Positions 10,801 to 29,655 of a stretch of 64,000 nt of DNA are shown here, piece after piece; position 1 is the first letter of the stretch, and every line of letters begins with the position of its first letter. The DNA is from Escherichia coli (GTDB taxonomy: Bacteria; Pseudomonadota; Gammaproteobacteria; Enterobacterales; Enterobacteriaceae). The notes below the pieces were generated by a model. The model was given only the letters and a program-made list of their open reading frames with translations, was not told the DNA's origin and did no database searches. The translations under genes and the position numbers were made by a program. The stretch lies in the NCBI RefSeq assembly GCF_036507355.1, contig NZ_AP027877.1. The stretch is one strand, 5' to 3'.

Positions 10801-11724
10801 GTGTTTTTTGAATATATAACAGGTAAAACTATGTCCTGGCTTAATTCTGTCTTATTGGCGCTTACCTCGGTGCAACCTTATATGGTACCGGCAACCGTTA
10901 TCGGCCTCGTCAGTTTTGCATTCCTCTGTTTTATTTTCTTTTATTTTTTTAGAGCAGTTAAAATTATTAACGGCCTGAAAAAATATACTCAGTCAATTAA
11001 TGGCATCGAAAATAATGAGCCTGGTAATCAGCTTCAGCATCTGCAAAGTTTGTTTGTACAGCCTGAGTTAAAGCACGCCTGGAATGAATTCGAAGAATCG
11101 TTGCACTCACAATATGAACTGGAGGACGGGGAAGAGAAAATCGTCCGTATTAGGGCTACTGCACCGAGCGCCAGTTTCTTCTCGGAGCAACAACTGGTCG
11201 ATATTCCGCTGAACACCGAATTTTTCAAACACCTGCCCGGTATTCTGACCGGTGTGGGGATTATCGGTACCTTCTACGGTCTGATGATTGGTCTCAACCA
11301 CTTCGACCCCAGCACACCAGAGCAGGTCTCCAGCAGCGTCAATAATCTGCTTCGCGATGTGCTGTACGCCTTCCTCGGTTCAGCATTTGCGATTACGTTC
11401 TCTATCCTTATCACCTGGCTGGAGAAATTCTGTCTGGCGAAATGCTACAAATATCTGGAAAAATTCACCGCAGCTCTCGACGCCCTCTATGACAGCGGTG
11501 TTGGCGAGGAGTACCTTGCCTCACTGGTAAAATCCAGTAATGAAAGCGCGACCCAGGCACGCCATCTGAAAGAGAGCCTGGTTACCGATTTACGCGATAT
11601 GCTGCTGCATCTGGCCAACAGCCAGAAAGTGGAAAACGAGCGGCTAGCGACCACCCTCAGCACCACCTATCGCGAAACAGGACAACAGTTTGCCGAGCAA
11701 GTCAGCGGTGCGATTGAAAACTGA
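10801..11724 (+). CDS. MotA/TolQ/ExbB-family proton-channel (stator-like) membrane protein (about 297-307 aa)
   Basis: Three predicted TM helices with TolQ/ExbB-like spacing. TM2 carries the family signature (LPGILTGVGIIGTFYG, compare TolQ GLFGTVWG). The stop codon TGA is formed by the first three bases of IS629, so the 3' end is disrupted or altered by the IS. Confidence 0.55.
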   Translation: MFFEYITGKTMSWLNSVLLALTSVQPYMVPATVIGLVSFAFLCFIFFYFFRAVKIINGLKKYTQSINGIENNEPGNQLQHLQSLFVQPELKHAWNEFEESLHSQYELEDGEEKIVRIRATAPSASFFSEQQLVDIPLNTEFFKHLPGILTGVGIIGTFYGLMIGLNHFDPSTPEQVSSSVNNLLRDVLYAFLGSAFAITFSILITWLEKFCLAKCYKYLEKFTAALDALYDSGVGEEYLASLVKSSNESATQARHLKESLVTDLRDMLLHLANSQKVENERLATTLSTTYRETGQQFAEQVSGAIEN

Positions 11725-11775
11725 ACCGCCCCGGGAATCCTGGAGACTAAACTTCCTGAGAAAGAGGTAAACAGG

Positions 11776-12102
11776 ATGACTAAAAATACTCGTTTTTCCC
11801 CCGAAGTCCGTCAACGGGCAGTCCGTATGGTTCTGGAAAGTCAGAGCGAATATGACTCACAATGGGCGACAATTTGTTCCATTGCTCCAAAGATTGGCTG
11901 TACGCCGGAGACTCTGCGTGTCTGGGTTCGCCAGCATGAGCGGGATACCGGGGGCGGTGATGGAGGGCTCACCACCGCTGAACGTCAGCGTCTGAAAGAG
12001 CTGGAACGTGAAAATCGTGAACTGCGCCGCAGTAACGATATCCTTCGCCAGGCTTCCGCTTATTTTGCGAAGGCGGAGTTCGACCGCCTCTGGAAAAAAT
12101 GA
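11776..12102 (+). CDS. IS629 OrfA (helix-turn-helix transposase N-terminal protein)
   Basis: [23 protein letters not shown]...; IS3-family OrfA with a leucine zipper near the C-terminus. Confidence 0.85.
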
Positions 12103-12989
12103 TGCCACTGCTGGATAAGCTGCGTGAGCAGTACGGGGTCGGACCGCTATGCAGCGAACTGCATATTGCCCCGTCAACGTATTACCACTGTCAGCAACAG
12201 CGACATCATCCGGATAAACGCAGTGCCCGTGCGCAGCGCGATGACTGGCTGAAGAAAGAGATACAGCGCGTATACGATGAAAATCACAAGGTATACGGTG
12301 TGCGTAAAGTCTGGCGTCAGTTGTTACGGGAAGGTATCAGAGTGGCCAGATGCACTGTGGCACGTCTCATGGCGGTTATGGGACTTGCCGGTGTTCTCCG
12401 GGGTAAAAAGGTCCGTACGACCATCAGCCGGAAAGCCGTTGCCGCAGGCGACCGCGTAAACCGTCAGTTCGTGGCAGAACGACCTGACCAGCTGTGGGTG
12501 GCTGATTTTACTTACGCCAGCACATGGCGGGGCTTCGTCTATGTGGCGTTCATCATTGATGTGTTTGCCGGATACATCGTGGGGTGGCGGGTCTCATCGT
12601 CCATGGAAACGACATTCGTGCTGGATGCACTGGAGCAGGCGTTATGGGCCCGTCGACCGTCCGGCACGGTCCATCACAGTGATAAAGGTTCTCAGTATGT
12701 ATCGCTGGCCTACACACAGCGGCTTAAGGAAGCCGGATTACTGGCATCAACAGGAAGTACAGGCGACTCGTATGACAACGCGATGGCGGAGAGCATCAAT
12801 GGTCTTTACAAAGCGGAGGTAATACACCGTAAGAGCTGGAAAAACCGTGCAGAAGTGGAACTGGCCACACTCACGTGGGTGGACTGGTATAACAATCGAC
12901 GATTGCTGGAAAGGCTGGGCCATACTCCTCCGGCAGAAGCAGAAAAAGCTTATTATGCTTCCATCGGAAACGATGATCTGGCAGCCTGA
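12099..12989 (+). CDS. IS629 OrfB (DDE transposase; expressed by -1 frameshift with OrfA)
   Basis: IS3-family integrase/DDE core (WVADFTY... HSDKGSQY... DNAMAES); overlaps orfA in the -1 frame. Confidence 0.85.
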
Positions 12990-13153
12990 GTTCACAGATA
13001 AAACACTCTCCAGGAAACCCGGGGCGGTTCACACTATTATTTCTCCGGTTAGCCTACAACAACGTTTTTATCAGAAGCTCAACCAGCAGATAATAGAAAT
13101 GAAAAACCCATTGCAGTGAAATTATTTTTGACAACATACAGCAGGAGTAAAAA

Positions 13154-13999
13154 ATGTTACGTGGTTCAGAAAGAAAAGAAGCATTAGCCAGTCTCAAAAG
13201 TGCAACTAACCGTTATGAAGTACAGGCTAAAGACACCCAGGATGAGATCACTGCCCTCTTTCTGTTACGCCAGAAATGCAGTAAGGACCTGATTGCCCGT
13301 GGTGAAAATTTTGTTAATCGACTGGCGAATACACCGAAAGAGTTTGATAAATCCTGGAGCGAATTGAAAGCGGAAATCGCTGAATTTGATAACGTGGTGG
13401 AAAAACTGGAAGAAGAATACCGCGCATCACATATTGGTAAAGGAACGGCTGCTGCGGGGGTTGCCGTTGGGGCGGGGGTCGCCGCATTTGCCCCTACGGC
13501 TGCGCTGGCGGTCGCAACAACTTTTGGTACAGCATCCACGGGTACCGCTATTGCTACGTTAAGCGGAGCTGCCGCAACAAATGCAGCCCTGGCATGGCTC
13601 GGCGGCGGCGCACTGGCTGCGGGTGGCGGTGGCATGTCAGCAGGAAGCGCACTACTGGCTCTGGCGGGTCCAATAGGCTGGGGGATTGGTGCTGTAGGCA
13701 TCGCTGGCGGAACCTTACTAGCCCGTCGCAAAAACGGTAAAATCATTGATGAAGCACAACAGGAAGAGCGCCAGGTTCGCGCAAAAACCAGCGAACTTCG
13801 CGTGATGGAACGTGGTGCGCAAGAACTCAAGATGCTCACATCCGAGCACTATCATGGTACTGAAAGCATTATTGATGTGCTGGAAAAGGCTGCGCCTCAA
13901 GACTATTGCCAGTTTAATACCCATCAGAAAGATCAATTAGGGGCATTGATTAACCATATCAATGCATTATCAAAACTGATCAACAAGAAAATCCAGTAA
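13154..13999 (+). CDS. Hypothetical protein with central Gly/Ala-rich glycine-zipper membrane segment (281 aa)
   Basis: Helical N- and C-terminal regions flank a Gly/Ala-rich hydrophobic stretch of about 100 aa (GTAAAGVAVGAGVAAF ... GWGIGAVGIAGG). Its stop overlaps the next start (TAATG). Confidence 0.5.
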   Translation: MLRGSERKEALASLKSATNRYEVQAKDTQDEITALFLLRQKCSKDLIARGENFVNRLANTPKEFDKSWSELKAEIAEFDNVVEKLEEEYRASHIGKGTAAAGVAVGAGVAAFAPTAALAVATTFGTASTGTAIATLSGAAATNAALAWLGGGALAAGGGGMSAGSALLALAGPIGWGIGAVGIAGGTLLARRKNGKIIDEAQQEERQVRAKTSELRVMERGAQELKMLTSEHYHGTESIIDVLEKAAPQDYCQFNTHQKDQLGALINHINALSKLINKKIQ

Positions 14000-15444
14000 T
14001 GAGCATTAACCATAATACAGTTGGCGACCAGCTTATCGGCAGCGCGGTTAACGCCATTAATCAGACCCGCATTGATAATGAACTGTTAAAACTATCGCAG
14101 CAGGATCGTGCATTTGAGTTGGCTGGCGAACAAATGCAAAAGGTGCGTGATTTCATCGCGTCACCGGGTAACATCCTGGGCTCAATGAGCACCAAACACG
14201 GTGAAATTGCTGAGCAGGTAGAAGTTGGCGTGCGCAATGCTCGCCAGGCAATAGAAGAAAGGGTTCAGGATGCCTCTGATCTTAGCGCCACGTTTGACGG
14301 AGTGGGTCGAACCGCTCCGGCGGATTATATGATAGATGGCGTTGACGTGCAGTCAAAGTTTATCAACGGAGTTAATAATAACCTGAACCATGTCCTTCAG
14401 CACATGGAAACCTATCCCAATTTCACCCGGGGAGAATCCTTTTACCATATCCCCAAAGACTCCTGGCAAACGATTCAGGATGTTATTGATGGGAAGCCGG
14501 TGGAGGGCTTGAGCGAAAAAACAATACAGGCTATCAGGGATAAAGTTGCAGAAATTGAAAGTACAACGGGAAGATCCTTTAATGATGTCGTGCGTCCTGG
14601 AGTTTCTGATTACAAAGATGTTCAGTGGGGAAAAATTGACGAAACTCTTGATAAACATGATCAGGAATTAGCGGAACAGAACGAGGCAAAAAAAGCAGAA
14701 ATTATTGACGATCACCAACCCTCCCTAAGTGAAGGCATGCGTGCAACCGCAATGGGAGCCGCTTTCGGTGGAACCTTTGCTCTTGTAACAGGTATATATA
14801 GCAAATACCGTGACGGTAAAAATATATTTCGTGGAGATTTCAACAGACAGGACTGGCAGGATGTCGGCTTAGATACATTGAAAGGTGCCGCTATTGGCGG
14901 TGTATCCGCCGGAGCAATTTATACCCTGACCAATTATGCCTCTCTGGGAGCACCGTTCGCCAGCGCGCTGGTCACTGCCGCTAAAGGTGTAAGCAATCTT
15001 GCTCTCTCCTATCAGCGCGGTGAGATTAATGCTGATGAATTTACCGATCTTGGCCTTATCATCTGCGCGGAATCGGCCATCGTTGGCGCAATGTCTGTCG
15101 CAGGTCAGGCAATCATCCCTGTGCCTGTTTTGGGGGCATTGGTTGGTTCTATCTCAGGGAAGTTTATGGTTACCGTAGCTAAAAATCTGGACAGTAAAGC
15201 ACGCCAATTGCTGGCGAAAAAAATGGAGCAATTTACATGTCGCTTAAGTGAGATTGAGCAGAAAGCACTCAACCGAATTTTGAACGAGTTCGCGGCGCTG
15301 GGTGAGCTTACCGCAGCTGCATTTAGCGTGGAAAACAATCGCCGGTTGCTGGAAGCAAGCATCACGCTTGCCCAAGCCCACGGTGTTGAAGAGGCGAAGA
15401 TAATCAAAAATGCGGATGATCTTGACACATTTATGATGGCGTAG
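13999..15444 (+). CDS. Hypothetical protein with C-terminal glycine-zipper membrane segments (481 aa)
   Basis: Soluble N-terminal region of about 240 aa, then several Gly/Ala-rich hydrophobic segments (GAAFGGTFALVTG, GAAIGGVSAGAIYT, AIVGAMSVAGQAII). Translationally coupled to the upstream gene. Confidence 0.5.
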   Translation: MSINHNTVGDQLIGSAVNAINQTRIDNELLKLSQQDRAFELAGEQMQKVRDFIASPGNILGSMSTKHGEIAEQVEVGVRNARQAIEERVQDASDLSATFDGVGRTAPADYMIDGVDVQSKFINGVNNNLNHVLQHMETYPNFTRGESFYHIPKDSWQTIQDVIDGKPVEGLSEKTIQAIRDKVAEIESTTGRSFNDVVRPGVSDYKDVQWGKIDETLDKHDQELAEQNEAKKAEIIDDHQPSLSEGMRATAMGAAFGGTFALVTGIYSKYRDGKNIFRGDFNRQDWQDVGLDTLKGAAIGGVSAGAIYTLTNYASLGAPFASALVTAAKGVSNLALSYQRGEINADEFTDLGLIICAESAIVGAMSVAGQAIIPVPVLGALVGSISGKFMVTVAKNLDSKARQLLAKKMEQFTCRLSEIEQKALNRILNEFAALGELTAAAFSVENNRRLLEASITLAQAHGVEEAKIIKNADDLDTFMMA

Positions 15445-15480
15445 CACTCGAATAAAAATTACAGCAAGGATAAAACCACA

Positions 15481-18003
15481 ATGCTACAGATAATTGGTGC
15501 GTTAATTTTACTGGTAATCGGTTTTGTTATTATAAAAGCGTTGTTTAAGGCATCTCTCAATATTCTAGGTGTGATATTAGGATTGGGTGCATTGATTGTT
15601 GCAGGCCCACCTTTATTGGCGGGCTATATTGTAGAGCGCGTAACCTATGCGCTTCACTCACGTTGGCTGCTGGGTGTACCTCTTGCCATAGCAGGAATGG
15701 TGATTAGCTTTATGTGGGGACTTGATGGTAAACATATTGCCTACGAAGCCTATTCATTTGATTCAATGAAGTTTATTTTAACCGCTGCATTTGCCAGTGG
15801 CCTGCTTGCAGTACCTGTACAAACCAAGGCTATTCTACAAAACGGGCTTATACCAGCCGATATCAATGCCAAACTTAAAGAGTATTATTGCTGTTTTTAT
15901 ACGTCTTACTTTTTGATGGCCTGCTCTGCGGCTACACCGTTTATAGCCTGGCAATATAATATCTCATCTTCACTGATGTGGTGGACAGGATTGCTATACT
16001 GGATAGCAGCCTTACTGACACAGTTCTATGCGGCAAACCAAATTCAGGAACTCAAGAAGTTAACTAATGCCATCAATACAGGGTTAAATGAGCAAAAAGC
16101 GATCAATAACCAACTTTGGCTGACGGAACTAAAAGAAGGAAGTAACCTCTCAGCAGAATTCGTAGAGACTATCTATCTTAAGTTGGTCTCACAGCATATT
16201 TTTCAGGGCGATACTCGAGAGCAGGATCTGGCTGGTGAAAACTGGCTTTTAAATGATGCCTGGTATGAAAGAAAGATGGCTGAATTTAATGAGCAGTTAA
16301 ACAGTAAAATTGTACACTCATCAGATGAGCTAAGAAGCCTTTTTGGTAATAGGCTGAATTTACCCTCTGCTGCGAATGATGATCTCCTGAACCGTTATCT
16401 TGATGGTGGGAACTATTATTCTTTTTCGGATGGTCGAAAATTTGTCTCGTTTCACTATGTCGACGAGCTTTGTACCTGCACTTCATGCGGTTTGAGCGAG
16501 ATTAAAAACGCAAAACACCAGGACGGTTGTGGGAGCCAGGAATGGTATTGCTCTGATATTTGCCGGGAAACGGAAAAACTCTGCATTGAAATTCACAAGC
16601 GACCACAGGCTGAATTTATTTCCAGTGCAGCAACAAACGGTCTGATTCTCATGACGCTCCCGGAGGCCTGGAATACTAACGAAAAAATGTTTGCAGTGGG
16701 AGGACAAGGACATGGTTTTGCAGCCGAACGGGGAAATCATCTTACTGACAAAATCCAACTAAAAGATGCACATATTCTCGGTGATGATAATGCGAAAAAT
16801 GGTGCAGACAGGCTGGTTAACGGTTCAGAGATTCAGACCAAATACTGTGCAACCGCTGCACGTAGCGTCGGTGCTGGTTTTGACGGACAAAACGGTAATT
16901 ATCGCTATTATGACAGTAACGGAACCCCAATGCAGTTAGAGGTTCCGAAAGACCAGTATTCGAAAGCGCTTGAAACGATGGAGAACAAAATTCGCGATGG
17001 CAAAGTCCCCGGCGTTACCGATCCTGCAGAAGCCACAAAACTTGTACGTCAGGGACACCTGACTTATAGCCAGGCACAAAACATTACTAAGTTTGGCACG
17101 TTCGAATCTATCACTTACGACATTGCGGAAGGATCTATCATCAGCCTCGCAGCTGGAGGTATCAGCTTCGGTCTGACAGCTTCTATTTTCTACCTCAATA
17201 CCGGCGATCGTAAGGCTGCGTTGCAAACGGCAGCAATACAGGCAGGTAAAACATTTACCCGCACACTGACAGTTTATGTGACGGTACAGCAATTACACCG
17301 TATCAGTGCCGTTCAGGGGTTACTTAAAAATATTGATTTTGCCGCTGCCAGCCCGACAGTTCGTAATGCGCTTCAACAGGGAGTCGGAGCTAACAATCTC
17401 AACTCCCTTAACAAGATGATGCGTGGCACACTGGTTACCTCTTTCGCACTGGTCGCCGTGACCACTGGTCCGGATATGATCAAAATGGTGCGAGGTCGTA
17501 TTTCTGGGGCACAGTTTATAAAAAATCTGGCAGTTACTTCATCTGGTGTGGCTGGGGGGGCAATTGGTTCTATTGCTGGCGGAATGATGCTTAGTCCATT
17601 AGGTCCTTTCGGTGCTTTAGCAGGACGCGCAGCTGGTGGCTTGTTAGGCGGTATGATTGCCACAGCGATTTCCAAAAAAATAGCGGGTGCACTGGTTGAA
17701 GACGACCGAGTAAAAGTGCTGGCTCTCATCCAGGAACAGGTTACATGGCTTGCAACAAGTTTCATGCTTACAGCACACGAACTTGAAAACCTGAACGCGA
17801 ATCTGGCAACAGTAATTGACCAAAAAACCCTGGAGGTTATCTTCGCCGCAAAAGAGCAAGACCGAGCAACGGCCAATATGCTGATTAAACCACTTGTAGT
17901 AAGTGTGGTTAAGCAACGACCGGTCCTGAGCTATGAACAATCGCAAATCTGCGAAATGGTCGATCAGCTTGATACATCGGTTTCATTATCTGCTGTTGCA
18001 TAA
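15481..18003 (+). CDS. Hypothetical large membrane protein (840 aa): N-terminal multi-TM domain, Cys-rich zinc-ribbon-like segment, C-terminal glycine-zipper region
   Basis: About six N-terminal hydrophobic helices; Cys cluster CTCTSCGLSEIKNAKHQDGCGSQEWYCSDICRETEKLC; C-terminal Gly-rich segment SSGVAGGAIGSIAGGMMLSPLGPFGALAGRAAGGLLGG. Confidence 0.5.
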   Translation: MLQIIGALILLVIGFVIIKALFKASLNILGVILGLGALIVAGPPLLAGYIVERVTYALHSRWLLGVPLAIAGMVISFMWGLDGKHIAYEAYSFDSMKFILTAAFASGLLAVPVQTKAILQNGLIPADINAKLKEYYCCFYTSYFLMACSAATPFIAWQYNISSSLMWWTGLLYWIAALLTQFYAANQIQELKKLTNAINTGLNEQKAINNQLWLTELKEGSNLSAEFVETIYLKLVSQHIFQGDTREQDLAGENWLLNDAWYERKMAEFNEQLNSKIVHSSDELRSLFGNRLNLPSAANDDLLNRYLDGGNYYSFSDGRKFVSFHYVDELCTCTSCGLSEIKNAKHQDGCGSQEWYCSDICRETEKLCIEIHKRPQAEFISSAATNGLILMTLPEAWNTNEKMFAVGGQGHGFAAERGNHLTDKIQLKDAHILGDDNAKNGADRLVNGSEIQTKYCATAARSVGAGFDGQNGNYRYYDSNGTPMQLEVPKDQYSKALETMENKIRDGKVPGVTDPAEATKLVRQGHLTYSQAQNITKFGTFESITYDIAEGSIISLAAGGISFGLTASIFYLNTGDRKAALQTAAIQAGKTFTRTLTVYVTVQQLHRISAVQGLLKNIDFAAASPTVRNALQQGVGANNLNSLNKMMRGTLVTSFALVAVTTGPDMIKMVRGRISGAQFIKNLAVTSSGVAGGAIGSIAGGMMLSPLGPFGALAGRAAGGLLGGMIATAISKKIAGALVEDDRVKVLALIQEQVTWLATSFMLTAHELENLNANLATVIDQKTLEVIFAAKEQDRATANMLIKPLVVSVVKQRPVLSYEQSQICEMVDQLDTSVSLSAVA

Positions 18004-18166
18004 TGAAAGGTATAAATTCATTACCATCGTGATATGGTGCTTCAGACGAAGCAAACTTAAATACCATTAACCCCATGATACTATTGTAAAATCCAAAAAA
18101 AATAATAGTAATCATCATAATGAACTGGTTCGAACAGACTGCGGAAGAGTATGGAGAATTAACAAA

Positions 18167-18186
18167 TAAGGGGGCATTTGCCCCCT
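18167..18186. terminator. Candidate bidirectional rho-independent terminator between the 840-aa gene and arsC
   Basis: Perfect 8-bp GC-rich stem AAGGGGGC/GCCCCCTT with a 4-nt loop, flanked by T-rich sequence on both strands. Confidence 0.5.
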
Positions 18187-18192
18187 TCATCA

Positions 18193-18618
18193 TTATTTCA
18201 GTCGTTTACCTGCATCATCAACGACTTTCTCGCCGTCTTCCTTAGCAAATGCGCCTTTTTGCGCATCCGGAAGAATATCCAGTACCACTTCGGAAGGACG
18301 GCACAGACGCGTTCCCAATGGTGTCGCCACAATCGGGCGATTAATCAGGATCGGATACTGAAGCATAAAATCGACTAACTGATCGTCAGTAAACTTATCT
18401 TCCGCAAGCCCCAGTTCTTCATAAGGTTCAACATTTTTACGCAATAGTGCCCGTACCGTTATCCCCATATCTGCGATGAGTTTGAGCACCTCATCGCGTG
18501 AAGGTGGATTTTCAAGGTAAAGAATAACGTTCGGTTCAGTACCGCTGTTGCGGATCATCTCCAGCGTATTACGCGACGTGCCGCAGGCTGGGTTGTGATA
18601 AATAGTGATGTTGCTCAT
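18193..18618 (-). CDS. arsC: Arsenate reductase ArsC (141 aa)
   Basis: MSNITIYHNPACGTSRNTLEMIR... with the catalytic Cys in the HNPACGTSR motif; recognised as enterobacterial ArsC. Confidence 0.85.
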   Translation of the reverse strand: MSNITIYHNPACGTSRNTLEMIRNSGTEPNVILYLENPPSRDEVLKLIADMGITVRALLRKNVEPYEELGLAEDKFTDDQLVDFMLQYPILINRPIVATPLGTRLCRPSEVVLDILPDAQKGAFAKEDGEKVVDDAGKRLK

Positions 18619-18630
18619 ATCAATATCTCA

Positions 18631-18840
18631 TTACAAAGTGAAAGAGAGACGTAGCGCCAGCGCGGCCAGCGTTACAAACAGCACAGGCAGAGTCATGATG
18701 ATCCCGGTGCGGAAATAGTATCCCCAGGTGATGGTCATGCTCTTCTGTGAAAAGACATGCAGCCAGAGTAGCGTTGCCAGGCTACCAATAGGTGTAATTT
18801 TCGGCCCCAGATCGCAGCCAATCACGTTGGCATAAATCAT
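18631..18840 (-). pseudogene. arsB: arsB 3' fragment (C-terminal about 69 codons of the arsenite efflux pump)
   Basis: Encodes only the hydrophobic C-terminal end of ArsB immediately upstream of arsC. No arsB 5' region or arsR is present, so the ars operon is truncated here. Confidence 0.7.
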
Positions 18841-19072
18841 CGCCTCTTTGATAACGCATCATACTGCCAGCGGAATAACTCTCTTCGTCAATACGGCTCT
18901 CGCTGTACGCTTACCCATCTAGAGAGGTTTCAGGTGATTATCGATGTCAGAAGACTGAATGATTCAGTCGTTTACTTTGAGATAGATCAGAGGTTTTTCA
19001 CTACCTGTGTTCATCACATGGCTACGAATAGTAGAATCCAAGCATAAATTAACGCTTAGAAAAGTTGAGCTC

Positions 19073-22000
19073 ATGAGATTCCACCCTGAAGGGCCTTCCA
19101 TACCCGATATCCTCTTAGAACGCTGTGATACAGGTCGAGTTGTATTTCTCTGTGGCGCTGGGGTTTCATTACCTTCAGGGATGCCAAGCTTTGTAGAGCT
19201 TACCCAGCATGTAATTGAATACTTTGACCCACCACACGATTCAGAAATCATGGCAGCATTTCGCCCATGGCTTCACGACCAATCTTCAGCTAATGTCCCT
19301 CTCGACCAAATTTTCAACCTCCTACATCTGGAATATGGCAAGGATGAGGTGAATGCTTTGGTATCAAAGCGTCTGGGGACTGCAAGAACTGATATAGAGA
19401 TTGGACGTGAGCATGCCCTGATTAAAAGAATTTCCTCAAATCAGAGTGGTGTCCCACAGATTGTCACAACGAACTTTGACCGACTGTTCGAGGATAACCA
19501 AGCGCAAGATAATCTAACTCGATATGTGCCGCCAGCTTTCCCAAATCTGAATTTCGGTTCGACAATTGAGGGAATAACATATCTTCACGGCCGCCTGGTC
19601 GACGAAAATGCTGTAAACCATCCTTATGTGCTGAGCAGTGCAGACTTTGGAAGAGCATATCTTTCAGAAGGATGGGCGACCAATTTTATTAAGCTTCTTC
19701 TGGAACGATACATCGTTGTTTTGGTCGGTTATCAGGCAGAAGACCCACCAGTTAAATACCTCCTTCAGGGTCTCAATCATGATGGCCAGTATGATCGTTC
19801 CAGACTTTATGCATTTGATCGCGGCCTTGCCGAGGATATCGAAGCCAAATGGCGTGACAGAGGAGTTACAGCCATAGCCTATTCCGATCATCCAGCTCTT
19901 TGGAAGACTTTGGAAGCATGGGCTGAGCGAGTAGATGATCCACGTCGATGGCGAGCTTCTATTATCGCTAAAAGCCAGCAAGATCCGAAAGTTCTAGCAC
20001 CGTATGAACGTGGTCAACTTGCCCATATACTTCGCACTACACAAGGTGCGAAATTGTTCTCTGAAGCTGTTCCTCTTCCCCATCCAGAGTGGCTTTGTGT
20101 GATGGATGCAAATATTCGGTCAGCCAAACAGAAGAAAAGATACTACGAACTTGATGACAATGATGCAGAGACCTTCGATCCACAAGAAGCTTATGGGCTT
20201 GATGACGATCTGCAAGATATCGCTGATGATGAACGTAAACGTGGAGTGAGTAACGATAATCTCCTTGAATAGCGCGACGAAGATGATAACCCGTCAGATT
20301 ACCATCGCTTGGCTGGATGTTTGGAGACAATGCCGAAACGATTGAGCCATCTCATGGTCTGGTTCTGCAAATCTCTTGATAGCCCCGTGATGGCTTGGTG
20401 GGCTATCCGAAAAATCAGTATTCATCCTCTACTACTACAAAATATTGAACGCAATATTGAGCATTCAACATCAATCCACAAACGCGCTCGTCAACTGTGG
20501 GGCTTAATTCTTGAACATCATAAAGATCCCCGCAATCGTCGTTATGACGTCGATTGGTACGACTTAAAAGCTCGAATTACAAAACAAGGCTGGACAGCTG
20601 GTGTCTTACGAGAATTTCGTAGGGTAATGACACCCCGATTGGAAAAGAAGTTGCCGTATGGATTGGGTGAAGTCAGACCGCCAAGCGGCTCCTGGGAGGA
20701 AATTCAGTTCAGCGAATTTGGCCAATTTGAAGTTGTGTTCACCGAAAGACATGATGACGATTTAGACGTACCTGACAATGTATTACTACAAGTATTTAAT
20801 GCCTTAGAAGCGCAAATAATAATTGCCTCCGGAATGTTAGAGGATATTGATACGCACTACTTTCCAAGCCCAAGTTGTTATCCAGAACGTGCGGTTGAAG
20901 GAGAAGAACATTTCGCGAAAGGTGCGGAGGTATTAACTTGGTTTGTCCAACTTTTAGACCGAGTTGTTATGAAGTGGCCAGAATTGGCTAAGGCATAAGT
21001 AACAACTTGGCCAGTTAAGGAGCCATTTTTCTTCCGAAAGCTTAGACTTTATGCATTCAGTAAAAAAGGCGTCTTTGAGGCTGACCGTGTTGCCGAAGAG
21101 CTTTTGTCTTTGGATCAAAGTGGATTTTGGGACACAAATATTACCCGCGAACTTCTTTTTCTGCTCACTGATCGTTGGGAAGAATTCTCGCAAGAAAATC
21201 AGAATCGAATTATAGAGCATATATTAACCGGCCCGAACCATTTACTTTATTTGTCTGAGGAAGACATTCCAAAAGAAAGAGAGATATTAGCAGCTAGATA
21301 CGCTCGTTATCTCGAACTAAACGGCTGTAAAGTAACCACTATTCATCGTGACCAACTAACTGCGATGATTAAAAGAATTCCTGACTGGAATGATGGCTGG
21401 GCTACATCTGTTGTCATCAATTGGGGTTCACGGACAGGTTGGGTTCGTACAGACGAAAAGCCAGATATAATCTTAGATCTTCCAGCAAACGAAATAATCC
21501 CAAAAGTAAAAGAGATACTTAAACGAGAGGATGATAGCTTTACTAGTAGGCAACCCTTTGTCGGATTGATAAAAGAAAATCCGCGTAAAGCTTTGTCTGC
21601 ACTCGCTATTGCAGGGAGAGGCGGTGATTACCCTAAGGAATTTTGGTCGCCAATGATAAGTGAGTTACCTATAGATCTTAAACCAAGGGTGAGACGAGTA
21701 TTCCTGAACCGAATTGTGCGATTGCCAGTTACAGCTTTGGTCGAGTTACGACATACATTAAGTAACTGGCTTGAACAAAATTTAGCTGCGACTCTTGAAT
21801 TTGATGAGGATCTCGGGTGGGCAGTTTACGATCATGTCATAGCAGGCATACTGAGTGGTGGCGCCAGTGCAATACGGAGTAGTTTCGGAGAAGTTATCCG
21901 GAATGGAGAAGTTGTAATACAGTCTCGCCGCACGTTCAGTCATGCAATCAATGGTCCTGTCGGTAAATGTACTCAAGCGCTTTTTCAAGCAATGCCAAGT

Positions 22001-22882
22001 GAAGAGAAAAAAGCTGGTTCGCTTATTCCTTACTCTATTAAGTCTCGTATTGAACATCTTTTTACTGCACCAGGAGAAGGAGCGGACCACGCTATAGCTA
22101 TAACGTCTCGCAATCTAAATTGGCTAATGTTTGTTGATCCTGCATGGGTAAAGGAATGGCTTATACCCCTTTTGGATTTAAAACATCCTGCAGCAGAACC
22201 AGCATGGAATGGTTATCTTCAGTGCAATGCTATGCCTTCAATTGCAGTAGCTGAACTTATTAAACCAGCTTTTCTTAACCTTATCCCTTGGATCGAATCT
22301 CTTTCTTGGGAAAAAGATTATTCAGTTCGAGCTTCGCAATGGCTTGGCTTAATGAGAATGTTTCACCCTGATGAGCCCTCCAGTCCTTCCAGGAATGAAA
22401 TGCGCTCCATATTACGAGCATTATCTGACGAGGCTCGAAATCGTTTTATTTCCTGGTTAGGATTGGTCGGGCAGAAAAACGAGAGTGGCTGGGTTAAGTA
22501 TGTGATCCCATTAATCAGAGAGGACTGGCCCAAAGAACGCCAATATAGAACCACGAGCTCTGTAAAAGCATGGATTGGTTTACTTGACGATACTGGCGAT
22601 AAGTTTCCGGAGGTTTACGATTCAGTAAAAACATACTTAGTACCAATCGAGACAATTGATCATTTGTTCTACAGATTCACTCGGGAGCTCGGTGGTAAAG
22701 GAGCAATTGCGGCTATTTTTCCAGAAACCACGCTTGATTTAATGGACAAAATAACACCACTGATATTCACGCGTACATCAGGAGAGCTGCAGAAGATTCT
22801 TGAGCTAATTGAAGATACAGATACAAGTCTGATCAAGGATTCTCGGTACTTACGGCTTATTGCACTGGTTGAGAAAAATTAG
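19073..22882 (+). pseudogene. Large SIR2-domain protein gene (about 1,270 codons) interrupted by two in-frame stop codons
   Basis: N-terminal SIR2-like motifs (VVFLCGAGVSLPSGMPSF; IVTTNFDRLFE). Track ORFs 19007-20272, 20309-20998 and 21104-22882 all lie in the same frame, separated only by TAG at 20270-20272 and TAA at 20996-20998. Confidence 0.65.
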
Positions 22883-23040
22883 CATTTATGGTTTTTTACC
22901 GTTGTTGATTACTCAGCAACACTTTTCGACATGCCGTAGCGCTTATCGCCTGTTCTTGACTAAGATGAGAAGCAGGCGTTAAAGTTTGGTTAAAGGAGAA
23001 CCTCTAACCATTCCTTCTGGAAGAAATAATCTTTGGAGTA

Positions 23041-23769
23041 TTATTGAAATTGCTCAAATATACCATGCAACCCAATAAATTTTATTTTTAGTGCAGGATC
23101 ATGCCTTAGAACAGTCTCAAGTGAGTTCCGCTCATAAATTATTGATTGTGCTTGTATTGAGCCGTTCCATGAAGGCAAAAGCAGTAAAGCAGATGTTTCC
23201 AAATCAATACCCCACCAATCGTTAACATAGCAATTTAAAAAATCAACAAGAGCCTTAATCGCAATAAAAGCATCTTTTTCGGTATATGTTTCAGGATCGA
23301 GGGATATACCTGATATATTACTTTTAGCTTGCTCGGAATTAATATTAGACTGGTGTTGATAAGCAATTTTTCCTTCACCCGGTTTAGTTTCTATTGTATC
23401 AGTGAAAATTTTAATCTTAGGATGCACCAATGCATTTCGTTGTGCTATTAATTCTTTTATTATTTGTGTTTGAGTGGTTCCACGAGGTAAAGACATGTCT
23501 TTATGCCATTGAAGAGTATAGTCAAATTTATCAAGTGAAGAGAACCTGTCAATTTGATCTTTTAACTTTTGCGTTATTTCTATAGAAGATAAAAATGAGT
23601 TAGCTGCAGCCTCAATAGCGTAGTTAATTGAAAGTACACTTGATTTGGCAAGTGTTTTTTTGATGTGTGATTTTTTTGTTGCAGCTGATAATTCATAAAG
23701 AGTTATTGCATCAGAAAAAAGCTCAAAAAAGCTGTTCTTGGTTATTTCAACTTTTCTTTTCACACGCAA
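23041..23769 (-). CDS. Hypothetical protein (242 aa), third gene of the uncharacterised operon
   Basis: ORF in a low-GC region 84 bp downstream of the 504-aa gene on the same strand; no recognisable motifs. Confidence 0.45.
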   Translation of the reverse strand: MRVKRKVEITKNSFFELFSDAITLYELSAATKKSHIKKTLAKSSVLSINYAIEAAANSFLSSIEITQKLKDQIDRFSSLDKFDYTLQWHKDMSLPRGTTQTQIIKELIAQRNALVHPKIKIFTDTIETKPGEGKIAYQHQSNINSEQAKSNISGISLDPETYTEKDAFIAIKALVDFLNCYVNDWWGIDLETSALLLLPSWNGSIQAQSIIYERNSLETVLRHDPALKIKFIGLHGIFEQFQ

Positions 23770-23852
23770 CCCTCTGCATAAAAAATAAAATCATATAGAC
23801 AGAATACAATTTCCTATAATCTTTACATTCTACTAATTGTGGATATAAATGG

Positions 23853-25367
23853 CTATCGAGAATAAGAACTGGGTTTAGGAAAACCACCTCTGACGACGAC
23901 AACAACAATTGCAACTTGAGATTGACCTGTTGGATGAGTGAATACTTCAATATCATCCTCTATTACTCCCACCGGCGCTGATTTTGACGTTGATTCCAGA
24001 ACAACCAAAATACCGATACGCTTACCTAATCCAATGGCATAAGCTGCTGTTTGATCGAAATATTTTTGAAAATCCTTGGGAAAAAGAACCTTATTATTTT
24101 CAACTTTTAGTTCTATCGGAATGTCTTCAAATGTGAGATCCGTTATCCCGCCAGCAGCCTCTGGATGGCCTTGTAATTTCTCGCCAATCTCATTCCTACT
24201 TCTAAGCATTTCGGCTATTTTACGCTGAAATTTTTGCTCTGATGTGCCAGCAATAAATAAACTAGCTTTAAGAGCTTGTGCTGCAACATTTCCTAAGCCG
24301 CCAAGTATAACCATTGTATTAGCAATGTCATCTGAGTGTAATCCAGGGAAAGCTCGTAATATGTTACGAATTTTTATAAGATGCCTATCGACGTTTGAAA
24401 ATCCAGTTAATGGAGCTTGAGCGGAATCACTCCCTTCAAGTAGTAAGCGCCTATGTCCTACGATAGCAATATTTTGGCAATTACTTAAATTGTCAAACTC
24501 GGCAGCATATAGGAATTCGTAAGGTCTCGAGCCAAATGAATTTGCCACTTCCAAGACGACACGACCGATCCCCTTCAGTGTGAAGGGGCCTTCCCCCTCT
24601 GGTTTCTCAAATCTAAAATCAGGCAACCAGTCTCGCTCACGAGCATCAATTGTCACTGGCTTTAATGAGAGGAAATTTGCACTTTTTGGCCAATTTGAAA
24701 CCCTGACCTCTATGTTAAGGTCATAAGCCGTACCCGGCTTAAGATAATTCCATTGCTGAGCTGGTTCCCCATCAATATCAAACTTTAGAAATGCAACTGT
24801 CGATTCTTGTGTTTTATTCTCTTTTGTCTCTTTACTAGATATTCCTTGCCTAATCTCCTCAATATTTTTATCGCGAAGATTTGCGAATAAGAGTAGTGGC
24901 AATGACCAGCTTGTTAACTGGTCTTGTATTTGTTTTAATGAATCTAATTTACTGATTGAACGGACTTGCTCTATAAATTCATTAAATTGTTTGTTCTCCG
25001 AGAGACTCGTCGTCATGTCGATCTCTGATGCTTTTAATTGTGCTGAATTTAAAAACCTTTGAGCATCAGTCTCAGCATTACGTATAGCATGTTTCCACTC
25101 AGCTAGAGTTACAAATATAGTCATTGCTATATAATATGCACGATATTGATCTTCAACATATCCCTGACCGAGCTCATCGAGCGTTTCATTGAGCTTTTGA
25201 CACGCTTCTTTAAGTTTCACCAAGTCATTCGGAATGGACTTGAGTGCACCATCCAACGCTGCTGCAATCTCAACCCTCGGAGAAAAAGCTTGGCGGAAAA
25301 TCTCGAAATTTGGCTCGTTCTTCATATTCTTTCTCCAACTCAGCCGTAAGACCATTCCATTTTTCAA
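23853..25367 (-). CDS. Hypothetical protein (about 490-504 aa) with possible C-terminal PD-(D/E)xK nuclease-like motif
   Basis: C-terminal segment GGITDLTFEDIPIELKVENNK fits a D-x8-E-x-K pattern. The start is uncertain: the first ATG overlaps the upstream gene by about 98 bp. Confidence 0.45.
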   Translation of the reverse strand: MKNGMVLRLSWRKNMKNEPNFEIFRQAFSPRVEIAAALDGALKSIPNDLVKLKEACQKLNETLDELGQGYVEDQYRAYYIAMTIFVTLAEWKHAIRNAETDAQRFLNSAQLKASEIDMTTSLSENKQFNEFIEQVRSISKLDSLKQIQDQLTSWSLPLLLFANLRDKNIEEIRQGISSKETKENKTQESTVAFLKFDIDGEPAQQWNYLKPGTAYDLNIEVRVSNWPKSANFLSLKPVTIDARERDWLPDFRFEKPEGEGPFTLKGIGRVVLEVANSFGSRPYEFLYAAEFDNLSNCQNIAIVGHRRLLLEGSDSAQAPLTGFSNVDRHLIKIRNILRAFPGLHSDDIANTMVILGGLGNVAAQALKASLFIAGTSEQKFQRKIAEMLRSRNEIGEKLQGHPEAAGGITDLTFEDIPIELKVENNKVLFPKDFQKYFDQTAAYAIGLGKRIGILVVLESTSKSAPVGVIEDDIEVFTHPTGQSQVAIVVVVVRGGFPKPSSYSR

Positions 25368-27843
25368 TTAAGTCATTATAGGGTTCGCAAACACTTATGG
25401 CATGTTCAATGCTAGCTGCTTCTGTAACTAAAGCAGCCTTAAGTTTCCATTGTGTATTTCTTTCATCATTTGGAATTTCTTCCAGTAGTTCCTTTAAACA
25501 AACATTTGCAGTTACGTTATCACCACACTTGCTTAACGCAGCCACGTACACTAATGCTTCAATAAATTGTTGAGGTTTAAATGGTTTCAGAGCATTGAAT
25601 GCTTTTTGGAGATCGTCTTTACAATTTCGAAGCTCATTATGTGGCGCTCTTAATATCACTGAGATGCAGTCATCAATAGAAATACTGCGAGTATACTCAT
25701 CCTGAATTGCTTTGAGTGCGACTTTGACAAAACCGGGAATATCATCAAAATGAAAACGCAATCGATTGATAGCATCATAAAGTGCACTTCCTTCTAAAAT
25801 TAATAATATATTAGAAAGAAGCAATCCAATTTTCCCCTTTCTCTCTTCATCTGATAAGCAAAGAGAAGAAAAAACGTCAATGCATTCTACAATGAAATTA
25901 TCTTTTTTATCTTGTTGAATATAATAGCAAATTAGATTCCATAGCCGGGATCTCACAAGTCCCCGTTTCTCCTCAGGAAAAGATCTACGGCTCAAAGCGC
26001 GAACAGCATACTGATGCACCATAACATATTGATCTAATAGCAAGACTGAATATGCTTCGAAGAATAAATCTGGGAAATTCTTCACTAAATCATAGGGAAC
26101 ATTTTCCCACGCTTGTACGGCACGTGCTCGAATCAATGTACTCTCATCCATAAGAGCACGATACCAATCGGAGAGCACTAGTGTTAGGCTGTCAATACCA
26201 GTTAATAACTTAGAAACATGGGCAATCATGTTCCCACGCATTTGAGTTTGTTCTTCTGGTAAGCTTCTATAGAGATGAAGAAAATCATCGATTCCTTCAC
26301 TCCCTCTAGATTTAGCTCCAATCGCAGCCCATTCAATCAATGCACCCTGTAAGCCATCAATAGCATTACGCTTATTACTTTTATCTAAATGATCTAGAAA
26401 ACTCTCATTTATTTCTATGATTTTTTCTTTATTCAACGCCTCAAATTTCTCGCTTAGCGTTGCAGCCGCTCCGATCAAATCGTCAAAATTATCAACTGCA
26501 AGCTCAGCAAATTCGTCCCAAGAGTGTCTAAAGAATTGTCCTGCATCATCCATGCTATCCTCTGGATTTTCCACAGCAGCCCAGAGCAAACGCCTAAAAG
26601 CTATTTTTTGTGTCTTTCCTGTTTTACTTTTTTTTCTATAGTTATTTCGCAGTACAGATCTGTAAGCTCTATTGGCCTCATGTCTCCCAATATCATCTTT
26701 GTCAGCAAGATAGGATTGAATAACTTTATCGCTTTCATCGGGAAATCTATCTAAGTATTTCGTAGCAGCCTCCCGAAGAAAGAAAAGAATGCTGCTATCT
26801 CTCCGCTCCTCCGGGAGTAGAGTCCGTCGACGCATCAGCTTAGCAAATATACTTCTAATATGTCTTAGAAGCAGCTCATCATCATCCGATGCAATAATTA
26901 TCTCAATAGCAAATTGAAATTTTCCCCGGTGAGTATCTTTTATGTATTCATCAACAACATCACAGATATCAGCTTGTCTTTTTTTAAAAAGTGACTGAAT
27001 GGGGCCTTTATTAAGTACTTTTCGCTCAAATGTGCCAATCATCATTCCAGGAGGAGATTCAACAGCCATTCTAACAAAGTGGTAAAGGACTTTTAAGAAA
27101 TCATCTTCAGATAGATTCTCTGCTTCCAAGAGGATTGCTTCTATAGCTGGTGGACAATATTCGAAGTTGTTTATTAAATATACTGAAATTGCCAGTTTTT
27201 CCGCTTGTGATAATTCAGTTCTTATTAAAGCTTTTGCTGCTGGCATTGAATATGGTAATTTCTCATGTAACACTGCAGGCAACAAGTGTTCAATTATTTT
27301 ACTTGTAAATGTCTCAGGTGCCAGATTAGCAAGTTGTTCCAAACGGGGATCGTTGTTCTCTATATCCTCTTGATCGAGTTCATCAAGCAAATCAAGCACA
27401 AACGTTTCTTCTAGAGTAAGTGAAAGACGTAATACTGCTCGTTCTTGTTGTCTATTGAGCTGCTTCTGCTTTCTCTGCCTTTCTTCTTCTTTGCGAGCCA
27501 AATTTCGTTCTTCGGCAGATTTTTCTCTTGGGCCTACAAACTCTAAAATATTGGGAAATCCCACCGGAACCCGTTGATTACAATGTTTACAGTTCTGTTT
27601 ATAGAAGCTGTAAACCGAGTCTTCCAGCAGCCAGCTAAGCATTGAACTTTGCTTAACAAATTTGCATTGAACTCCCATGTGACCAATGGGTAACCCTGTT
27701 TCAGCCTCAATCATGCCTCTCCCCTCTGATCGAATGAATTCAGAGTGAGAACACCAGTTACTAAGTAGGTGTACAGCACGGAGATTTCGTTGACCAGCTT
27801 CGATTGCCTCTTCAAATCTTTTTTTATCTTCAAAATCATCCAT
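25270..27843 (-). CDS. Hypothetical large protein (857 aa) with N-terminal Cys/His cluster; first gene of the operon
   Basis: N-terminal WCSHSEF...GHMGVQCKF...CKHCNQ could be a zinc-binding module; the rest is predicted helical with charged linkers. Preceded by an AT-rich 400-bp region. Confidence 0.5.
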   Translation of the reverse strand: MDDFEDKKRFEEAIEAGQRNLRAVHLLSNWCSHSEFIRSEGRGMIEAETGLPIGHMGVQCKFVKQSSMLSWLLEDSVYSFYKQNCKHCNQRVPVGFPNILEFVGPREKSAEERNLARKEEERQRKQKQLNRQQERAVLRLSLTLEETFVLDLLDELDQEDIENNDPRLEQLANLAPETFTSKIIEHLLPAVLHEKLPYSMPAAKALIRTELSQAEKLAISVYLINNFEYCPPAIEAILLEAENLSEDDFLKVLYHFVRMAVESPPGMMIGTFERKVLNKGPIQSLFKKRQADICDVVDEYIKDTHRGKFQFAIEIIIASDDDELLLRHIRSIFAKLMRRRTLLPEERRDSSILFFLREAATKYLDRFPDESDKVIQSYLADKDDIGRHEANRAYRSVLRNNYRKKSKTGKTQKIAFRRLLWAAVENPEDSMDDAGQFFRHSWDEFAELAVDNFDDLIGAAATLSEKFEALNKEKIIEINESFLDHLDKSNKRNAIDGLQGALIEWAAIGAKSRGSEGIDDFLHLYRSLPEEQTQMRGNMIAHVSKLLTGIDSLTLVLSDWYRALMDESTLIRARAVQAWENVPYDLVKNFPDLFFEAYSVLLLDQYVMVHQYAVRALSRRSFPEEKRGLVRSRLWNLICYYIQQDKKDNFIVECIDVFSSLCLSDEERKGKIGLLLSNILLILEGSALYDAINRLRFHFDDIPGFVKVALKAIQDEYTRSISIDDCISVILRAPHNELRNCKDDLQKAFNALKPFKPQQFIEALVYVAALSKCGDNVTANVCLKELLEEIPNDERNTQWKLKAALVTEAASIEHAISVCEPYNDLIEKWNGLTAELEKEYEERAKFRDFPPSFFSEG

Positions 27844-28246
27844 TTAGATAACACCCTTATAAGGAACATGTACTCATCTAAAATGCTGTTACCGGATTAT
27901 TATACCTAAAACAATGAATGCTGTGTATTATGAAATGTGATATAAGTCAATTAGTTACATATAAAAACCAACTCACATCCAAAAGGATAGTATTTCGAGG
28001 TTTGTAGCATCATTAAATGTGAACTTATTTATCGCCCCCTCAAGTTAACTAATAAATAAGTTATAATTTACATATACTTCTGGAATTTAGAAACCTTATA
28101 TCTAATAGTTGAGTAAGTTAATAATCAACTTGAGTGTGATTCATAAAAAAAATAATTATTATTTTCAGCCCCTCCATTATGGAGGAGCAATAATAGTATA
28201 GTTTTCCTGTATTCCTAACGATCCAGTTAGGCTTAGAGAAATCTAA

Positions 28247-29443
28247 TTATGAAGCACTCCTGAGAGCAACCCTTCCAACTTTATCAATATAATCCGCATA
28301 CCACTGCATCATCTCTCTCCTGCCTTCCAAATACAGCGCATGGTTGTACGTCCCGCGAATCGCATTCTTATCGACATGCGCAAGCTGGGTTTCAATCCAT
28401 GCGGTATTGAACCCTTCCTCATGCAAAATCGTACTCATCGTGTGGCGGAAACCATGCCCCGTTACCTTCCCCGTGTACCCAATCCGCTTAAACACCTGAT
28501 TAATACTCGCTTCGCTCATTGTTTTGCGGGGATCATTCCTCCCAGGAAACACCAGAGGATATTGCCCAGACATCACTTTGAGCTGCTGTACGATCTCCAG
28601 CGCTTGGGTAGAGAGGGGCACCAGGTGAGGCCGTTTCATCTTCATGCGCTCTGCAGGTATTTCCCACACCGCTTTTTCAAGATCAAACTCACTCCAGAAA
28701 GCACCTCGAAGCTCACCGGTGCGAACCCCCGTAAGGATCAGCAAACGTGCGGCAAGAACAACCAGCGGGCTGCCTGTATAGCCAGAAAGAGCTTTAAAGA
28801 AATCTGGTAACTCCTCAACGGTAAGGAAGGGATAATGCTTCGATTCATGCCCTGACATCGCGCTGGTTAGATCCGCAGCCGGATTGTATTCCGCACGACC
28901 GGTAACTATGGCGTAGCGAAAGACTTCGCTGCAGCGCTGGCGAACTTTCTTGGCCTTCTCTGTCGCACCACGGCTTTCCATTCGACGCAGTACATTCAAC
29001 AGAACAAGAGGCTTAATTTCATTGACTGGCTGCTGACCGATATAGGGAAAAATATCTTTATTTAAAGCTTCGATAATGTCCGATGCATACCCTTCTGACC
29101 ATCTGCTCACCTTCGTACCGTGCCACTCAAGCGCCACAGACTGGAACGTATTATTGAGCTGCACATCACGAACCAGCTTTTCTTCTTTCTTGGCAAACGA
29201 TGGATCGATACCCTCGGCCAGCTTTTTCTTGGCTTCATCGCGTAGTGCCCTCGCTTGAGCAAGGGACACTGCCGGATAAACGCCAAAAGCCATACGCTTC
29301 TCTTTTCCATTGAAGCGATATTTCATTCGCCAGTATCGAGAACCAGAGGGAACGACTTCAAGATACAAACCAGCACCATCTGCCAGCTTATAGGCTTTCT
29401 CTCTGGGTTTAGCTGCATCTACCTGTCGCGCATTTAGCTTCAT
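28247..29443 (-). CDS. int: P4-type tyrosine integrase (about 398 aa)
   Basis: N-terminal MKLNARQVDAAKP...LYLEVVPSGSRYWRMKYRF typical of P4-family integrases; C-terminal catalytic region with HGFRHT and a downstream Tyr; lies beside a tRNA fragment. Confidence 0.8.
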   Translation of the reverse strand: MKLNARQVDAAKPREKAYKLADGAGLYLEVVPSGSRYWRMKYRFNGKEKRMAFGVYPAVSLAQARALRDEAKKKLAEGIDPSFAKKEEKLVRDVQLNNTFQSVALEWHGTKVSRWSEGYASDIIEALNKDIFPYIGQQPVNEIKPLVLLNVLRRMESRGATEKAKKVRQRCSEVFRYAIVTGRAEYNPAADLTSAMSGHESKHYPFLTVEELPDFFKALSGYTGSPLVVLAARLLILTGVRTGELRGAFWSEFDLEKAVWEIPAERMKMKRPHLVPLSTQALEIVQQLKVMSGQYPLVFPGRNDPRKTMSEASINQVFKRIGYTGKVTGHGFRHTMSTILHEEGFNTAWIETQLAHVDKNAIRGTYNHALYLEGRREMMQWYADYIDKVGRVALRSAS

Positions 29444-29606
29444 TGGGGGCATCTCCCTGGACCGAACACAGAATGCCCCCACTTATGCCCCCAACTGTAA
29501 CTTGATTCCGGTTGAGTCCAGTTGATAACAGGAGATAAAATACGGGCTAGAAACCGCAGTATACGGGCTTTTAGTTGATTTCGGTAGACTTGGGAAGAGT
29601 TTGAAA

Positions 29607-29655
29607 TGGTGCCGATAATAGGAGTCGAACCTACGACCTTCGCATTACGAATGCG
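29607..29655 (-). other. 3' fragment (49 bp) of a tRNA-Thr(CGU) gene; attachment-site remnant
   Basis: Reverse complement reads ...CGCATTCGTAATGCGAAGGTCGTAGGTTCGACTCCTATTATCGGCACCA: anticodon stem-loop with CGT, T-arm, acceptor 3' strand and CCA. The 5' half of the tRNA is absent, so this is not a functional gene. Confidence 0.7.

Follow-up and report, generated by a model that had tools for sequence, protein, structure and literature searches.

The closest described relatives of the locus analysed here are the plasmid-type arsRDABC operons of the R773-like kind, as present in E. coli Combat11I9 and on plasmids of Enterobacter and Klebsiella, and the native chromosomal arsRBC operon of E. coli. 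In the window, by which is meant the whole 64,000-nucleotide stretch of E. coli DNA that was analysed, arsC and the 3′ part of arsB were 92-93% identical in DNA sequence to the plasmid-type operons and were found with equal gene spacing and the same terminator hairpin, whereas arsR, arsD, arsA, and the part of arsB for residues 1-355 were lacking, and with them the operon promoter. The ArsC of the native arsRBC operon, which unlike the island remnant is complete, belongs to the same family as the island ArsC: the native protein in strain ET826 shares 89% identity with the island one, and in DNA sequence the native and island copies are in the 80-90% identity band. The segment is very likely a redundant, decaying remainder of an arsR(D)(A)BC operon of the plasmid type, probably silent or weakly expressed. 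It is situated among the cargo genes of a CP4-like integrative island. NCBI PGAP annotates arsC and a partial ArsB/NhaD transporter with a missing N-terminus in the five complete genomes of E. coli that have the locus; both genes are already in the RefSeq annotation, and the IS66 stub listed below is absent from it. The following features were assigned (arsB′, the arsB fragment; positions are those of the window).

13154-18003, plus strand: cassette of three genes (281, 481, and 840 aa) to the left of the remnant, with its 3′ end meeting the arsC terminator.
18139-18162, plus strand: possible 3′ vestige of a convergent arsA-like gene, ~24 nt; in blastn, 18139 is the first position with homology to J3 and Photorhabdus.
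18168-18187, directly past the arsC stop codon: native ars terminator hairpin, GC-rich, AAGGGGGCATTTGCCCCCTT, also present in full ars operons.
18193-18618, minus strand: arsC, predicted glutaredoxin-dependent arsenate reductase of the R773 type; uninterrupted open reading frame of 141 codons.
18197-18209, plus strand: 13-nt direct repeat TTCAGTCGTTTAC, copy 1, inside the last arsC codons.
18631-18857, minus strand: arsB′, ArsB residues 356-429 of 429; 74 sense codons, the stop codon, and 2 nt of codon 355.
18858-18914, plus strand: IS66-family stub (right end), ~57 nt; the final ~16 nt of tnpC, then the right terminal inverted repeat.
18915-19006, plus strand: Dsr1-like leader outside the IS end, 92 nt, with a small hairpin at 18953-18969.
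18963-18975, plus strand: 13-nt direct repeat TTCAGTCGTTTAC, copy 2, 49 nt outside the IS66 end and overlapping the hairpin at 18953-18969.
19007-22882, plus strand: Dsr1-like defence sirtuin gene to the right of the remnant, disrupted by two nonsense mutations.

The ArsC product was full-length and above the curated cutoff against NF007456 of NCBIfam (293.8 bits, cutoff 242), and scored 129.1 bits against TIGR00014 (cutoff 106). It was aligned without gaps to R773 ArsC (PDB 1I9D), and the catalytic Cys12 and arginine triad of R773 ArsC (Arg60, Arg94, and Arg107) were all kept. By family the island arsC is a true arsenate reductase gene of the R773 type, with its activity predicted from sequence. 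The native ribosome-binding region and terminator are still present; the hairpin at 18168-18187 is the native ars operon terminator, and the order of arsB′, arsC directly downstream of it, and then the terminator is collinear with complete operons. Past the hairpin, the segment 18139-18162 gave a local alignment score of 22-23 compared with a mean of 15.9 for shuffled sequences (sd 2.1, maximum 24), that is, ~3 sd over the shuffle mean yet under the shuffle maximum. A convergent arsA-like gene is located downstream of arsC in strain J3 and Photorhabdus, and the segment, which matches it by position, may tentatively be regarded as a vestige of such a gene.

The reading frame of arsB′ contains neither a frameshift nor an internal stop codon, was matched by tblastn to ArsB residues 356-429 at 94.6%, and is separated from arsC by a spacer of about 12 nt, the native operon spacing. 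The first in-frame ATG of arsB′ leaves 69 codons, in agreement with the original prediction that about 69 terminal arsB codons remain beside an intact arsC. Against NF011980, arsB′ covered profile positions 360-428 of 430 with 125 bits (cutoff 457) and was not scored as full-length ArsB, and homology to full-length arsB ends at 18857 (...TTTGATAACGC). No tblastn match to ArsR, ArsD, ArsA, or ArsH was obtained in the whole 64-kb window, so that the reported lack of arsR was confirmed, and none was obtained in the window for ArsB residues 1-355. Upstream of arsB′, the IS66 stub and the Dsr1 leader are found where an ars operon has arsR with its promoter. The arsB fragment is a pseudogene, and the locus, without arsR and its promoter and without a complete arsB, falls outside the definition of an ars operon. 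The extent first proposed for the remnant, 18193-18960, runs past the two genes and takes in the IS66 stub as well as some 45 nt of leader that belong to the following gene.

The break region was searched by blastn against a 28-Gb database, and the right end of ISEc8 was matched at 82-86% identity over 63-77 nt with E values down to 8e-11; taken together, the right ends of ISEc8, ISEc22, and ISKpn24 were 78-86% identical to the stub over 63-77 nt. The end of tnpC and the inverted repeat were assigned to the stub from annotated IS66-family copies. The terminal repeat of the stub ends with ...GTACGCTTAC at 18914 (18905-18914), is aligned with the ISEc8 right end, and mirrors the ISEc8 left end GTAAGCGTAC, in accordance with the GTAAGCG start of IS66 inverted repeats. 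No significant tblastn match to TnpA, TnpB, or TnpC was obtained in the window, and the IS66 left end is absent; one end alone survives of the two that an 8-bp target-site duplication would flank in a complete copy. The stub is a fossil and not an IS element. The original prediction that no IS lies at the breakpoint has therefore to be corrected, since a 57-nt right end of the IS66 family sits exactly against the arsB break.

The interior of the stub adjoins arsB′, and the trinucleotide CGC at 18855-18857 is common to arsB and the IS66 partner as a 3-nt overlap. Because it is the interior of the IS66 sequence and not its terminus that touches arsB′, and because CGC is shared, the break is best read as an illegitimate deletion that would have fused arsB codon 355/356 to IS sequence ~57 nt short of the element's end, and not as a transposition into arsB. 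An IS66-family element that transposed into arsB and decayed later, with the break as its insertion site, would account for IS66-family sequence exactly at the break; transposition, however, would set the terminal inverted repeat against arsB, whereas the part facing arsB′ is internal, ~57 nt from the terminus and within tnpC, and the true terminus at 18914 points away from arsB′, so that this course of events is very improbable. Even less credence is given to misread coordinates or a faulty assembly with an intact arsRB directly upstream, the arrangement that the original prediction had named as contrary to it: this was checked and refuted, as ArsR and ArsB residues 1-355 are absent from the window by tblastn and the same structure recurs in five independent complete E. 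coli genomes and many draft contigs.

The sole known ars promoter is the one upstream of arsR, and it has been lost here. No minus-strand promoter was found in the promoter scan of 18619-19200, and a relaxed scan returned a single 8-of-12 match (minus strand, 18885-18858), one observed versus 2.0 expected by chance; these null results favour a silent or weakly expressed arsC, although consensus scans are no proof of silence. The second complete ars operon that the original prediction proposed to look for was found in ET826, where the native arsRBC is complete at 239102-241236, between gorA/dinQ and slp at the usual locus and ~2.7 Mb from the island; an ars match was present in 5422 of 5426 complete E. 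coli genomes. With the promoter and the repressor lost, the pump partner gone, and the native arsRBC present, the island arsC most likely has little or no expression and is drifting to loss. It was lost or degraded independently at four related loci, namely in EC2641 by a deletion of 247 nt that shifts the frame and lies between 7-nt repeats, by an IS3-family insertion in CP090277, by truncation of the 3′ end in contig L030, and by complete absence in contig L029. The arsC polymorphisms within the E. coli clade comprise three nonsynonymous changes (V82I, L47F, and Q87H) and one synonymous change, and both of the two in arsB′ are nonsynonymous, which looks about neutral in ratio, the counts being tiny. 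Selection of the island arsC as a functional orphan, transcribed from a fortuitous promoter in arsB′ or the IS66 stub or by read-through and serving the native ArsB pump, is nonetheless conceivable, given the intact reading frame with C12, R60, R94, and R107, the kept ribosome-binding region and terminator, an identical ArsC protein in 15 contigs, and the one weak promoter-like match; but that match is at chance level, the 3:1 polymorphism is about neutral, the native operon is present, and arsC was independently destroyed or lost at the four loci above, which makes such an orphan unlikely. Intact arsC was observed at 9 of the 10 places found via the 840-aa neighbour, and weak selection on arsC would be compatible with the intact state in most copies. 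For a decaying leftover, the best explanation of the kept reading frame and catalytic residues is that the events were recent, not that the gene is needed.

In comparison with related genomes, the window was 99.99-100% identical to strain ET826 across most of the island, and a 16.6-kb block (13029-29655) was 99.9% identical in ET826, Z226-5, and PSJ-29. EC2641 shares this block except for IS insertions and the arsC deletion, and Z226-6 has the same ars junction region. The island in PSJ-29 and Z226-5 carries a P4-type integrase beside tRNA-Thr/proA. The flanks of the remnant (18004-18165 and 18915-19010) were found, among E. coli genomes, in the five carrier genomes only, and none of the plasmids covered more than the ars part.

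A scan with the window-specific 3′ end of arsC, using one genome per species, led to Enterobacter sp. R1(2018), and six Enterobacter-type loci (L013-L018) were examined out of 24 contigs read that carry the R1(2018) ArsC. In Enterobacter sp. R1(2018) and these six loci, 13032-18857 of the window was aligned at 98.97% identity over 5.8 kb, with the PDC-M09 cassette and an identical junction to the arsC terminator in common. Past the 18857 breakpoint of the window, the Enterobacter islands continue with a full 429-aa arsB, an arsA remnant, arsD, arsR, and a Gabija-like pair; in place of arsB-arsR and the Gabija-like pair, the window contains the IS66 stub, Dsr1, an Olokun-like pair, and an integrase. 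The arsB 3′ alleles of the two differ by 7%. The CP4-like islands of Enterobacter sp. R1(2018), L010, and L013-L018 share a backbone of AlpA, YfjJ/Gp2-like, WYL, GTPase, and DUF932 genes. Since full-length arsB, arsD, and arsR are retained in Enterobacter islands with the identical arsC-side junction, the 5′ part of the operon was lost in the window lineage, and the suggestion of a deletion scar made in the original prediction was upheld. In the E. coli J3 island, of the same family and located at tRNA-Leu, this cargo slot holds arsRDABC together with another ars cluster in convergent orientation; ars operons thus belong to the ordinary cargo of such islands. In the Enterobacter islands, arsA is cut to a remnant of ~95 aa between arsD and arsB (8284-8571 of L013), so that these 'intact' relatives are likewise decaying ars operons.

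The two parts of the remnant differ in their nearest allele. Identity to the Enterobacter allele was 99.3-99.65% for the genes of the PDC-M09 cassette, 97.65% for arsC, and 92.95% for arsB′. In arsC (18193-18500), 7 of 308 sites differed from the Enterobacter allele and 58 of 308 from the J3-type allele, whereas in arsB′ (18619-18857) the corresponding numbers were 17 and 8 of 239; with the full arsC (10 versus 65 of 426 sites) and arsB′ (17 versus 8 of 239), Fisher p = 5e-7. These counts show the remnant as a mosaic at the sequence level, with an Enterobacter-like arsC and an arsB′ resembling another, J3-type allele, and the recombination breakpoint must lie, by the same site counts, at about 18500-18630, the most conserved stretch. 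The allele differences are mainly synonymous (pN/pS 0.13-0.14), and this low ratio indicates that they arose in working operons and not through decay. In the simplest reading, a Dsr1-IS66′-arsB′ block and an arsC-PDC-M09 block would have been joined by homologous recombination within the ars sequence. Since ars operons are frequently carried by islands and plasmids of enterobacteria, it is possible, if doubtful, that the conserved arsB-3′/arsC-5′ region serves as a portable homology 'handle' for island-to-island swaps of defence cassettes (Dsr1/Olokun-like and PDC-M09); an equally tentative part of this idea is that the arsB′-IS66 stub may simply be carried along as a piece of the sequence 5′ of Dsr1. 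Both the allele mosaic and the falling identity in L030 described below are compatible with a handle and show recombination in the ars sequence, not a recurrent route.

The junction was also traced in metagenomic sequences. When these were scanned with 25 nt of the Dsr1 leader as the pattern, two contigs were found, L029 and L030, and in both the Dsr1 leader is preceded by exactly the arsB′/IS66′ joint of the window. L029 has an intact Dsr1 gene (1291 aa, 95.8% identical to the gene of the window) and retains 77 nt of arsB′ and no arsC, with unrelated genes past arsB′ (aldehyde dehydrogenase, a LysR-type regulator, and a flagellin-like gene). L030 is 86.8% identical overall, with identity dropping with distance from the junction; its arsB′ has a 9-nt deletion, and its arsC lacks the 3′ end and is followed by an unrelated gene. 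The same joint in these diverged contigs means that the deletion was a single event, much older than the split among the present E. coli copies. The alternative in the original prediction, that the remnant is the edge of a captured fragment, was thereby supported in part: the arsB′/IS66 junction moves with the Dsr1-like gene into other contexts, and the remnant is a recombinant of two ars alleles. The exact look-up of the intact 1291-aa Dsr1 returned two contigs only, both of the same structure. An intermediate with a complete IS66 element between an ars operon and Dsr1 was found neither in this look-up nor in the metagenome pattern scan, in which L029 and L030 already carry the deletion joint.

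The following history is proposed. The starting point, as suggested by the relatives, would be an island with the order PDC-M09 - arsC <- arsB <- ... <- arsR, as still found in the Enterobacter islands, so that the ancestral ars operon would have been past cargo of a CP4-like integrative island. In a lineage with an IS66-family element and a Dsr1-like gene upstream of the ars operon, a single illegitimate deletion at the 3-nt microhomology CGC would then have joined arsB codon 355/356 to the IS66 element ~57 nt from its right end and removed the first 355 arsB codons, arsR with the sole known ars promoter, and nearly the whole IS; the junction itself is read directly from the sequence, and its mechanism is the one that best fits it. 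Finally, homologous recombination in the arsB-3′/arsC-5′ region would have joined Dsr1-IS66′-arsB′ to arsC-PDC-M09 to give the chimeric remnant, where the mosaic is seen in the alleles and the direction of exchange is presumed. Since the searches gave no intermediate that still has a complete IS66, the succession of these steps and the identity of the recombinant lineage are presumed.

For practical purposes, the island arsC should not be taken for a second determinant of arsenic resistance, and the annotation should gain the 57-nt IS66 stub. The locus shows nothing beyond well-known genome decay, and serves as a worked example of how the cargo of E. coli defence islands is rebuilt by illegitimate deletion, IS decay, and homologous recombination in passenger genes. 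Rapid gain and loss of defence systems borne on mobile genetic elements has been reported (PMC10121019), and the locus agrees with that report. In the literature searched, no link was found between arsC/arsB remnants and Dsr1, IS66, or PDC-M09.

On the left side of the remnant, the first two genes of the cassette correspond to A and B of the PADLOC candidate defence system PDC-M09 (E values of 2e-120 and 3e-214), and the cassette and its junction are present at 99% identity also in Enterobacter. The third protein, of 840 aa, has a precomputed Pfam match to YeeR_C and faint similarity to PDC-M09B, and the exact protein is listed in 155 index blocks of a public collection. A WYL-domain regulator is located upstream of the PDC-M09 cassette in other strains.

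On the right side, the Dsr1-like gene is split into open reading frames of 421, 229, and 592 aa by two nonsense mutations, one unique to the window (20271 G>A) and one common to the window and ET826 (20998 C>A), and the gene is intact (1291 aa) in PSJ-29 and L029. The Dsr1 leader of the window was 100% identical to that of L029 and the gene 95.8%, which suggests that the leader is probably a regulatory region under constraint; a scan of 18915-19006 for consensus sigma-70 promoters gave none. A role of arsC as a component of a defence system was considered and rejected, as it has no PADLOC match and is repeatedly lost beside an intact Dsr1. The two copies of the 13-nt direct repeat are exact and bracket arsC-arsB′-IS66′ at a spacing of 766 nt, with 0.03 copies expected in the window; similarity does not extend past the 13 nt, copy 2 has two mismatches in L030, and the repeat could be tied to no event.

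Elsewhere on the island, zorA1 is cut after ~307 codons directly against an IS3-family element (~11720-13030) in the region 10801-13030, and the rest of zorA1 with zorB, zorC, and zorD (7.2 kb) is missing from the window in comparison with ET826; an IS-adjacent deletion has removed a type I Zorya system. At 23041-27843 on the minus strand, a three-gene operon adjoins the integrase; its 857-aa and 504-aa products match OloA and OloB of Olokun, no PADLOC or Pfam match was obtained for its 242-aa product, and the GC content falls to 32-38% at its 3′ end. In 27326-33617, the OloA-like gene is interrupted by ISKpn26 in ET826 (L001) and free of this insertion in the window. The island adjoins ycgV/dhaR in the window and ET826, as compared with tRNA-Thr/proA in PSJ-29 and Z226-5; no tRNA gene was found in the whole window, and the ycgV/dhaR neighbours suggest a relocation or rearrangement of the island.
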